Source: a virus. From it: 16,531 nucleotides of DNA. The translations under genes were made by a program, and so were the position numbers. This document shows, in pieces, positions 8,912 through 9,024 of the stretch (within the stretch, counting starts at the first letter, position 1; every line of letters starts with the position of its first letter). The stretch lies in the UHGV virus genome UHGV-1602447. One strand, given 5' to 3'. A model generated the notes under the pieces. It was not told the DNA's origin. It saw only the letters and a program-made list of their open reading frames with translations, and made no database searches.

Positions 8912-8938
8912 TAGTGCCTCCGTTTATCACACAGAGCA

Positions 8939-8967
8939 ACTTTACCATTTTGATAAATAAACTGCAA
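8939..8967 (-). promoter_or_regulatory. candidate pR: TTGCAG-17 bp-TAAAGT
   Basis: -35 = RC of 8962-8967, -10 = RC of 8939-8944, exact 17-bp spacer. -10 overlaps the operator at 8941-8957. The same hexamer pair occurs at candidate pL. Confidence 0.5.
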
Positions 8968-9006
8968 TGGAGATTTATCAAAATGCGTATTTATCCATTT
9001 GCTAAA
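8941..9006. promoter_or_regulatory. OR operator region: 17-bp sites TTTACCatttTGATAAA (8941-8957) and TTTATCcatttGCTAAA (8990-9006); consensus TTTATC-N5-GATAAA
   Basis: Two near-palindromic 17-mers, each with one half-site mismatch, lie between the divergent cro and cI starts. A perfect copy occurs at OL. A middle site (approx. 8965-8985) is degenerate and could not be assigned. Confidence 0.6.
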
Positions 9007-9024
9007 TAGAGGGAGAATCGTGGG

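Follow-up and report, generated by a model that had tools for sequence, protein, structure and literature searches.

A lambdoid immunity switch, very probably of the H-19B type, in an E. coli prophage: operators, promoters and their conservation among related phages

The closest described relatives of the locus presented here are the immunity region of the Shiga-toxin-1 phage H-19B and those of the phages that resemble it. The operators of H-19B were reportedly described experimentally by Shi and Friedman, Mol Microbiol 2001 (41:585-599). A public annotation of this immunity type is GenBank record GQ499358.1, which comes from phage ST2-8624, is entitled "immunity region; similar to bacteriophage H19-B" and carries seven annotated repressor binding sites, OR0 to OR3 and OL1 to OL3. 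A second record, KU238070, annotates oR1 to oR3 about 2 bp away from the corresponding sites, with oR2 at a position similar to that of OR2 in GQ499358.1. For H-19B itself four operator sites in OR are credited to Shi & Friedman 2001 (PMC8065619). Our full-text literature search for the operator sequences and the GenBank accessions gave no match. In another lambdoid phage, 933W, OR comprises three sites and OL two (PMC8065619), and the 933W repressor binds DNA non-cooperatively, a property that has been attributed to a divergent C-terminal domain shared by H-19B (PMC3202840).

Here we have analysed a window, that is, the whole stretch of 16,531 nucleotides of the virus genome UHGV-1602447, in which cro and cI are divergent and separated by a gap of 113 bp, the same gap as in H-19B (Table 1). 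Downstream of cro lie cII, an O-like gene and a gene for a DnaB-like helicase, and N is preceded by a nutL-like element, so that the layout leading from pL to N is present. The cro product shows weak similarity to the solved Cro proteins 8co2 and 8c7k. The C-terminal domain of CI is recognised by Pfam as Peptidase_S24 (E = 3.8e-16), and its N-terminal domain, when represented by a profile of the family, matches the solved phage CI helix-turn-helix (HTH) structures 8c3l and 7nkv and the repressor 5d50 with E-values of about 1e-5. The family profile was needed, as the single CI sequence gave spurious pseudoazurin matches and a weak CI match when compared with solved structures; similarly, HTH_3 matches six of ten CI family members, and the window CI alone (E = 0.004) falls under the Pfam cut-off. 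Taken together, divergent cI and cro, a repressor of the HTH plus S24 type, and OR and OL operators that lie over the pR and pL hexamers, by which a lambdoid switch is recognised, are all found in the sequence.

Table 1. Positions in the window of the genes, promoter elements, operators and leader element of the switch
Feature	Position	Strand	Description
cII	8243-8539	minus	98 aa; Pfam Phage_CII
cro	8678-8911	minus	77 aa; PHROG phrog_35, transcriptional repressor
OR0	8923-8939		TTTATC ACACA GAGCAA = TTTATCACACAGAGCAA; 2/12 mismatches; annotated in GQ499358.1
pR -10	8944-8939	minus	TAAAGT
OR1	8941-8957		TTTACC ATTTT GATAAA = TTTACCATTTTGATAAA; 1/12 mismatches; GenBank OR1
pR -35	8967-8962	minus	TTGCAG; 17-bp spacer to -10
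OR2, register favoured by sequence	8974-8990		TTTATC AAAAT GCGTAT; 4/12 mismatches; perfect left half
OR3	8990-9006		TTTATC CATTT GCTAAA = TTTATCCATTTGCTAAA; 1/12 mismatches; GenBank OR3
pRM -10, candidate	9013-9018	plus	GAGAAT; candidate -35 TTTATC at 8990-8995, 17-bp spacer
cI	9025-9729	plus	234 aa; N-terminal HTH and C-terminal Peptidase_S24 autocleavage domain
OL3, degenerate	11112-11128		ATAATC AACAG GATATT; 4/12 mismatches; annotated in GQ499358.1
OL2	11144-11160		TTTATC ATTTT GCTATT = TTTATCATTTTGCTATT; 3/12 mismatches; GenBank OL2
pL -35	11159-11164	plus	TTGCCA; 17-bp spacer to -10
OL1	11169-11185		TTTATC ATTTC GATAAA = TTTATCATTTCGATAAA; perfect consensus match; GenBank OL1
pL -10	11182-11187	plus	TAAAGT; predicted start A at 11194
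nutL-like element	11234-11279	plus	boxA GCTCTTTAA at 11234-11242; boxB-like hairpin TGGCTGAAAAGCCA at 11266-11279
N antiterminator	11378-11650	plus	90 aa; Pfam N_peptide, E = 2.2e-32; first gene of the pL operon

The window CI is identical to that of H-19B at 233 of 234 residues, the only substitution being in the C-terminal tail (residue 233), and Cro is identical at 75 of 77; in the partial H-19B record AF034975 the lengths of cI, cro and cII equal those in the window. In an alignment of the OR regions 11 of 136 positions differ, among them positions in the middle-site spacer and a single base in the right half of OR0. OR1, OR3 and OL2 have the same sequence in both phages and OL1 differs by one spacer base, such that all the half-sites of OR1, OR3, OL1 and OL2 are shared, as are the -10 hexamers; the -35 of pR reads TTGCAG in the window and TTGCGG in H-19B. 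Given the near-identity of CI and Cro and the similarity of OR, we assign the window to the H-19B immunity type, and we are highly confident that the locus serves a lambdoid E. coli prophage of this type as its immunity (lysis-lysogeny) switch. The switch is one that has already been described, namely the H-19B immunity region, which is annotated in GenBank at matching positions.

A megablast search with positions 8600-11400 finds about 95% identity to the Stx phages BP-4795 and ST2-8624 and to many Stx1a phages, over the segment from cro through OR to cI and over OL and pL; E. coli APEC37 has a chromosomal copy of 8600-11400 that is 99.7% identical. BP-4795, ST2-8624, many Stx1a and Stx2a phages and mEp506 all have this immunity type. 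From these sequence comparisons, homoimmunity with H-19B, BP-4795 and the Stx phages of the ST2-8624 type is predicted, which would be useful for annotating the prophage. Beyond the immunity region the mosaic is a different one: the best matches to the window as a whole are mEp506, HK75 and Sf6, and its replication and nin modules resemble those of the same three phages. The similarity to H-19B is broken between cI and OL, where the window has a ClpP/SDH-like protease and a 56-aa open reading frame instead, and the genes between cI and OL, together with N and nutL, are unrelated to those of H-19B.

With respect to lambda, the likeness is one of design, in that both have divergent cI and cro, multiple 17-bp pseudo-palindromic operators, and N and nutL downstream of pL. 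The consensus of the operators is TTTATC-N5-GATAAA in the window, whereas lambda has the unrelated TATCACCGCCAGTGGTA type. Neither the N-terminal nor the C-terminal domain of the window CI is a close homologue of its counterpart in lambda CI, and the lambda CI structure was not matched in our sequence and profile searches of solved structures with the window CI. The comparison with 933W and phi24B is divided along the repressor: they have a lambdoid layout and a CI C-terminal domain like that of the window (residues 81-234 of the window CI are 94-95% identical to those of loci with a 933W/phi24B-type N-terminal domain), while the N-terminal DNA-binding domain is unrelated, and because of this the 933W operators differ from those described here.

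The operators stand out clearly from the rest of the window. An original prediction, made from the letters of the sequence, had placed 17-bp near-palindromes at 8941-8957, 8990-9006 and 11144-11160 and a perfect copy at 11169-11185, and these positions proved exact to the base; it had also taken them to be the operators of an immunity switch, and the four coincide with OR1, OR3, OL1 and OL2 of GQ499358.1. When that record is mapped onto the window, OR0 and OL3, which the original prediction had missed, fall at the positions given in Table 1, and OR2 falls at 8966-8982. The motif scan that had been proposed as a check bears out the predicted sites, as TTTATC-N5-GATAAA with at most one mismatch occurs four times in the 16.5-kb window against 0.05 expected, a number reached in none of 200 shuffles, and, as shown below, the sites are conserved in related phages. 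With at most two mismatches there are nine matches against 0.91 expected, and again no shuffle reaches nine. The weak sites OR2 and OL3, each with 4/12 mismatches, are not significant alone, since equally good scores are reached by 0.5% of all 17-mers in the window. As the switch had been described before, the proposal that this consensus defines the immunity specificity of the phage holds as a reading of the operators but not as a new specificity. From the sequence alone a genuine regulatory switch had in this way been located to the exact base pair, the switch being the already known one of H-19B.

One might argue that the palindromes are simply a product of chance in AT-rich intergenic DNA, or that they bind some other factor, for example a host protein, with the promoters lying elsewhere. 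The region is indeed AT-rich, TTTATC alone is enriched only about twofold (20 matches in the window against 10.6 expected), and a copy with one mismatch that looks coincidental is found within a nin gene at 4360-4376. However, the full motif is enriched about 80-fold and is clustered at OR and OL, and in the public annotation of the H-19B immunity type the sites are given as binding sites of the repressor. We therefore regard this explanation as highly improbable, and both the promoter geometry and the pattern of conservation considered below weigh further against it.

The copy at 4360-4376 (TTTACCATATCGATAAA) is an operator-like palindrome within a nin gene (3783-4715, minus strand) whose product resembles PAPS reductase. 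We considered it as a distal operator of the H-19B immunity and rejected this, as an identical site is present in the same nin gene in 33 IMG/VR loci, and among 11 nin-gene loci that extend 5.8-12.7 kb toward the expected position of cI none encodes an H-19B-type CI. The match is probably a coincidence, but binding of CI there in the present prophage is conceivable. A further site with two mismatches, at 11069-11085, is not conserved in H-19B and was taken as chance.

The promoters are closely interlocked with these operators. Specifically, pR (TTGCAG-17-TAAAGT, minus strand) and pL (TTGCCA-17-TAAAGT, plus strand) can be read in the sequence as had been predicted and are conserved across diverged relatives, and each -10 overlaps an operator half-site, as had also been claimed, by 4 bp that correspond to the terminal TAAA of the operator. 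A consensus promoter scan with a threshold of 9/12 found pL; pR, which scores 8/12 by manual count, was not listed by it. OR1 lies inside the spacer of pR, with its centre at about -17 from a start predicted near 8932 on the minus strand, and OR0 lies just downstream of the pR -10, covering this predicted start. In the same manner OL1 lies inside the spacer of pL with its centre at -17 from the predicted start, and OL2, 25 bp from OL1, overlaps the pL -35 by 2 bp.

In an alignment of pL with that of lambda, TTGCCA falls over TTGACA and TAAAGT over GATACT, and, after six more nucleotides beyond the -10, there follows the stretch CATCAGCAGGACGC, which lambda, H-19B and the window share unchanged. 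In lambda the pL transcript begins with the A of ATCAGCAGG, at coordinate 35582, which fits the coordinates of OL1. Based on the alignment with this known start, the window pL start is predicted at 11194, and with the hexamers so aligned lambda and the window agree in all of the first 13 transcribed bases. Moreover, O1 is centred at -17 of both pR and pL in lambda and in the window, the starts in the window being predicted ones. This agreement in operator-promoter geometry speaks against palindromes that arose by chance.

We propose that dimers of CI would recognise the 17-bp TTTATC-N5-GATAAA sites, of which the two best, OR1 and OL1, lie inside the spacers of pR (serving cro, cII, O and P) and pL (serving N). 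Because the TAAA of the operator is also the first four bases of the -10, bound repressor would exclude RNA polymerase from both promoters and the prophage would be silent. The weaker sites (OR0, OR2, OR3, OL2 and OL3) may add occupancy at the early promoters and would probably control the promoter of cI, with the role of each weak site deduced from its position. Cro made from pR would be expected to act on the same sites and turn cI off, with a site preference that we infer, and self-cleavage of CI stimulated by RecA would lift repression. That repressor would bind the sites of the window is predicted from the GenBank annotation and from the H-19B literature for the immunity type.

To see how these elements are conserved, we scanned IMG/VR with the window CI, which returned 50 homoimmune loci, one locus whose CI is 73% identical (L054) and a set of loci in which the likeness is confined to residues 81-234. 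Among 20 distinct variants of the homoimmune OR, OR1 and OR3 have one variable column each, both singletons, so that 2 of their 34 columns vary compared with 20 of 79 elsewhere (Fisher p = 0.019). The left half of the middle site shows no change in these variants and that of OR0 a single singleton change, and the variation is concentrated in three stretches, namely from OR1 to the middle site, the spacer of the latter and the OR0 right half. No variant changes the pR -10 or the TTGC of the pR -35; the final two bases of this -35 differ among them. Among 22 variants of OL, all 17 columns of OL2 are invariant, whereas OL1 keeps both of its half-sites and has its 5-bp spacer in five forms. The pL -35 of the homoimmune variants is TTGCCA or TTGTCA.

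A second scan, seeded with the L054 CI, added the CI subfamilies L156-L161, L162-L184 with L187, and L185-L186, and the N-terminal domains of the four diverged subfamilies are 50-59% identical to that of the window. In these, OR1 lies at -84 or -83, the middle site at -51 and OR3 at -35 from the cI ATG, with the half-sites kept and the spacers unrelated; OR0 is absent from the CI subfamilies other than that of the window. The retention of half-sites alongside varying spacers, in homoimmune and diverged relatives alike, again argues against chance palindromes. The form of pR across the family is TTG(C/T)nn-17-TAAA(G/C)T, with the pR of L054 fitting a 16-bp spacer, and that of pL is TTG(C/A)nn-17-TAAA(G/T)T. 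Throughout, the register of O1 is constant, in that its last four bases, TAAA, open the -10.

The half-sites themselves change between subfamilies. In L156-L161 and L162-L184, OR1 has TTTAGC/GCTAAA instead of TTTATC/GATAAA within the same layout, and since the left half of the middle site is also TTTAGC where OR1 is, the type of half-site co-varies with the subfamily. Such a switch of half-site type along with CI would not be expected if the sites served some factor other than the repressor. The presumed recognition helix (of the SPAQLSQ type) hardly differs between the TTTATC subfamilies (the window, L054 and L185-L186) and the TTTAGC subfamilies. As the helix is nearly the same across subfamilies, the residue that reads position 5 of the half-site is not obvious.

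The position of the middle site in OR is where our reading departs from the public one. In the GenBank register (8966-8982, AATGGAGATTTATCAAA) OR2 has 8/12 mismatches, and 39% of all 17-mers in the window match the consensus at least this closely. In contrast, a consensus left half at -51 from the cI ATG, which is 8974 in the window, is kept in five of five CI subfamilies, and the 17-mer that begins there appears to fit the middle site better on sequence grounds. OR2 at 8974-8990 abuts OR3, with which it has one T in common, and its centre lies at -43 from the cI ATG compared with -42 in lambda. The two public records, which differ by 2 bp at oR1 and oR3, both disagree with the register of this conserved half-site. 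With OR2 in the register favoured here, the centres of OR0, OR1, OR2 and OR3 are spaced by 18, 33 and 16 bp, giving four irregularly spaced sites as opposed to the three sites at 23-24 bp in lambda.

An alternative is that the window has a cooperative, tripartite operator in the style of lambda, where OR1 and an OR2 at 8966-8982, about 24-25 bp apart, would be filled together through contacts between C-terminal domains and OR3 would be filled last. The position of OR2 in GQ499358.1 would give lambda-like centre spacings of 25 and 24 bp, KU238070 is similar, and the 25-bp spacing of OL1 and OL2 is also in keeping with such an arrangement. Set against this are the poor match of 8966-8982 to the consensus, the half-site that starts at -51 in every subfamily, and a CI C-terminal domain of the 933W type, the 933W repressor having been reported as non-cooperative (PMC3202840). 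We consider a tripartite operator of this kind unlikely, and the C-terminal domain together with the irregular spacings argues against lambda-like cooperation between OR1, OR2 and OR3, such that lambda-like cooperativity at the OR of the window is doubtful. The original prediction had suggested that a degenerate middle site would fit a cooperative OR1-OR2-OR3 arrangement; there is a degenerate middle site, by our reading at 8974-8990, but OR0 brings the number of sites to four and the cooperative part of the suggestion found no support.

Returning to a middle site at 8974-8990, the promoter of cI may be placed in relation to it. In all of 11 representative sequences from five subfamilies, GAnnAT is found at -12 to -7 from the cI ATG, 17 bp downstream of a TTTAYC that is the left half of OR3, and it is preceded by TGn in four of the five subfamilies, the exception being that of H-19B and the window. 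This suggests that pRM would be leaderless, as in lambda, and that its transcript would begin with the A of the cI start codon (9025). In such a layout OR3 would cover the -35 and spacer, a repressing position, and OR2 would occupy the position of an activator. The conserved GAnnAT, or the G-rich stretch, could in part be a ribosome-binding site, for example for transcripts of the pRE type. A TATCAT-type -10 was also considered for pRM and rejected, being found in H-19B and L054 and absent from the window.

The comparison across the family thus fixes the registers of the operators and promoters, questions one public annotation of OR2 and suggests a leaderless pRM. Whether the full proposal is correct, namely that the public OR2 is displaced by 8 bp, that a site at 8974-8990 is centred at -43 from a leaderless pRM of the extended -10 kind, that this layout holds family-wide and that specificity switches between TTTATC and TTTAGC, seems to us evenly balanced. 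If true, lambdoid switches of this family would follow a common rule, with an operator spacing that is not that of lambda.

On the left side, the relatives also bear on OL3. In L054 and in the L156 and L162 subfamilies OL1 is preceded, at a distance of 57-58 bp, by a third OL site with at most one mismatch, and L185 and L186 have a comparable site (TAAATCAAAAAGATAAA) at the same distance, which supports the degenerate OL3 of the window. In L054, whose CI is 73% identical, OL3 is near-perfect (TTAATCATAAAGATAAA). The region upstream of OL2 in this locus (L054 5136-5210) is unrelated to that of the window, whereas OL2, OL1 and pL are almost unchanged, and a boundary of recombination may therefore lie at the left edge of OL2. 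The similarity of the window to H-19B stops near 11206, about 12 nt past the predicted pL start, and beyond it nutL and N are of a different type, the boxA of the window aligning near that of lambda nutL. As the similarity to H-19B ends there, a mosaic junction would lie directly downstream of the conserved ATCAGCAGGACGC leader that is common to lambda.

The slot between cI and OL, which in lambda carries rexAB, is occupied in the window (9853-10955) by a gene for a ClpP/SDH-like serine protease of 300 aa (PF01972, phrog_11747) and, next to it, an open reading frame of 56 aa (phrog_28875), followed by a terminator-like hairpin at 10936-10955. In the BP-4795 RefSeq record the products named in this slot are a HigB-family toxin and a transcriptional regulator. 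Neither of the two window genes was matched in a PADLOC screen for defence systems; the protease and the 56-aa open reading frame could be an exclusion or defence module expressed in the lysogen. Finally, between ninB (4652-5167) and the gene for the DnaB-like helicase (5746-7197) there is a gene for an HNH endonuclease with an AP2 domain (5082-5687, minus strand), which has the appearance of a homing endonuclease inserted into the replication/nin region.
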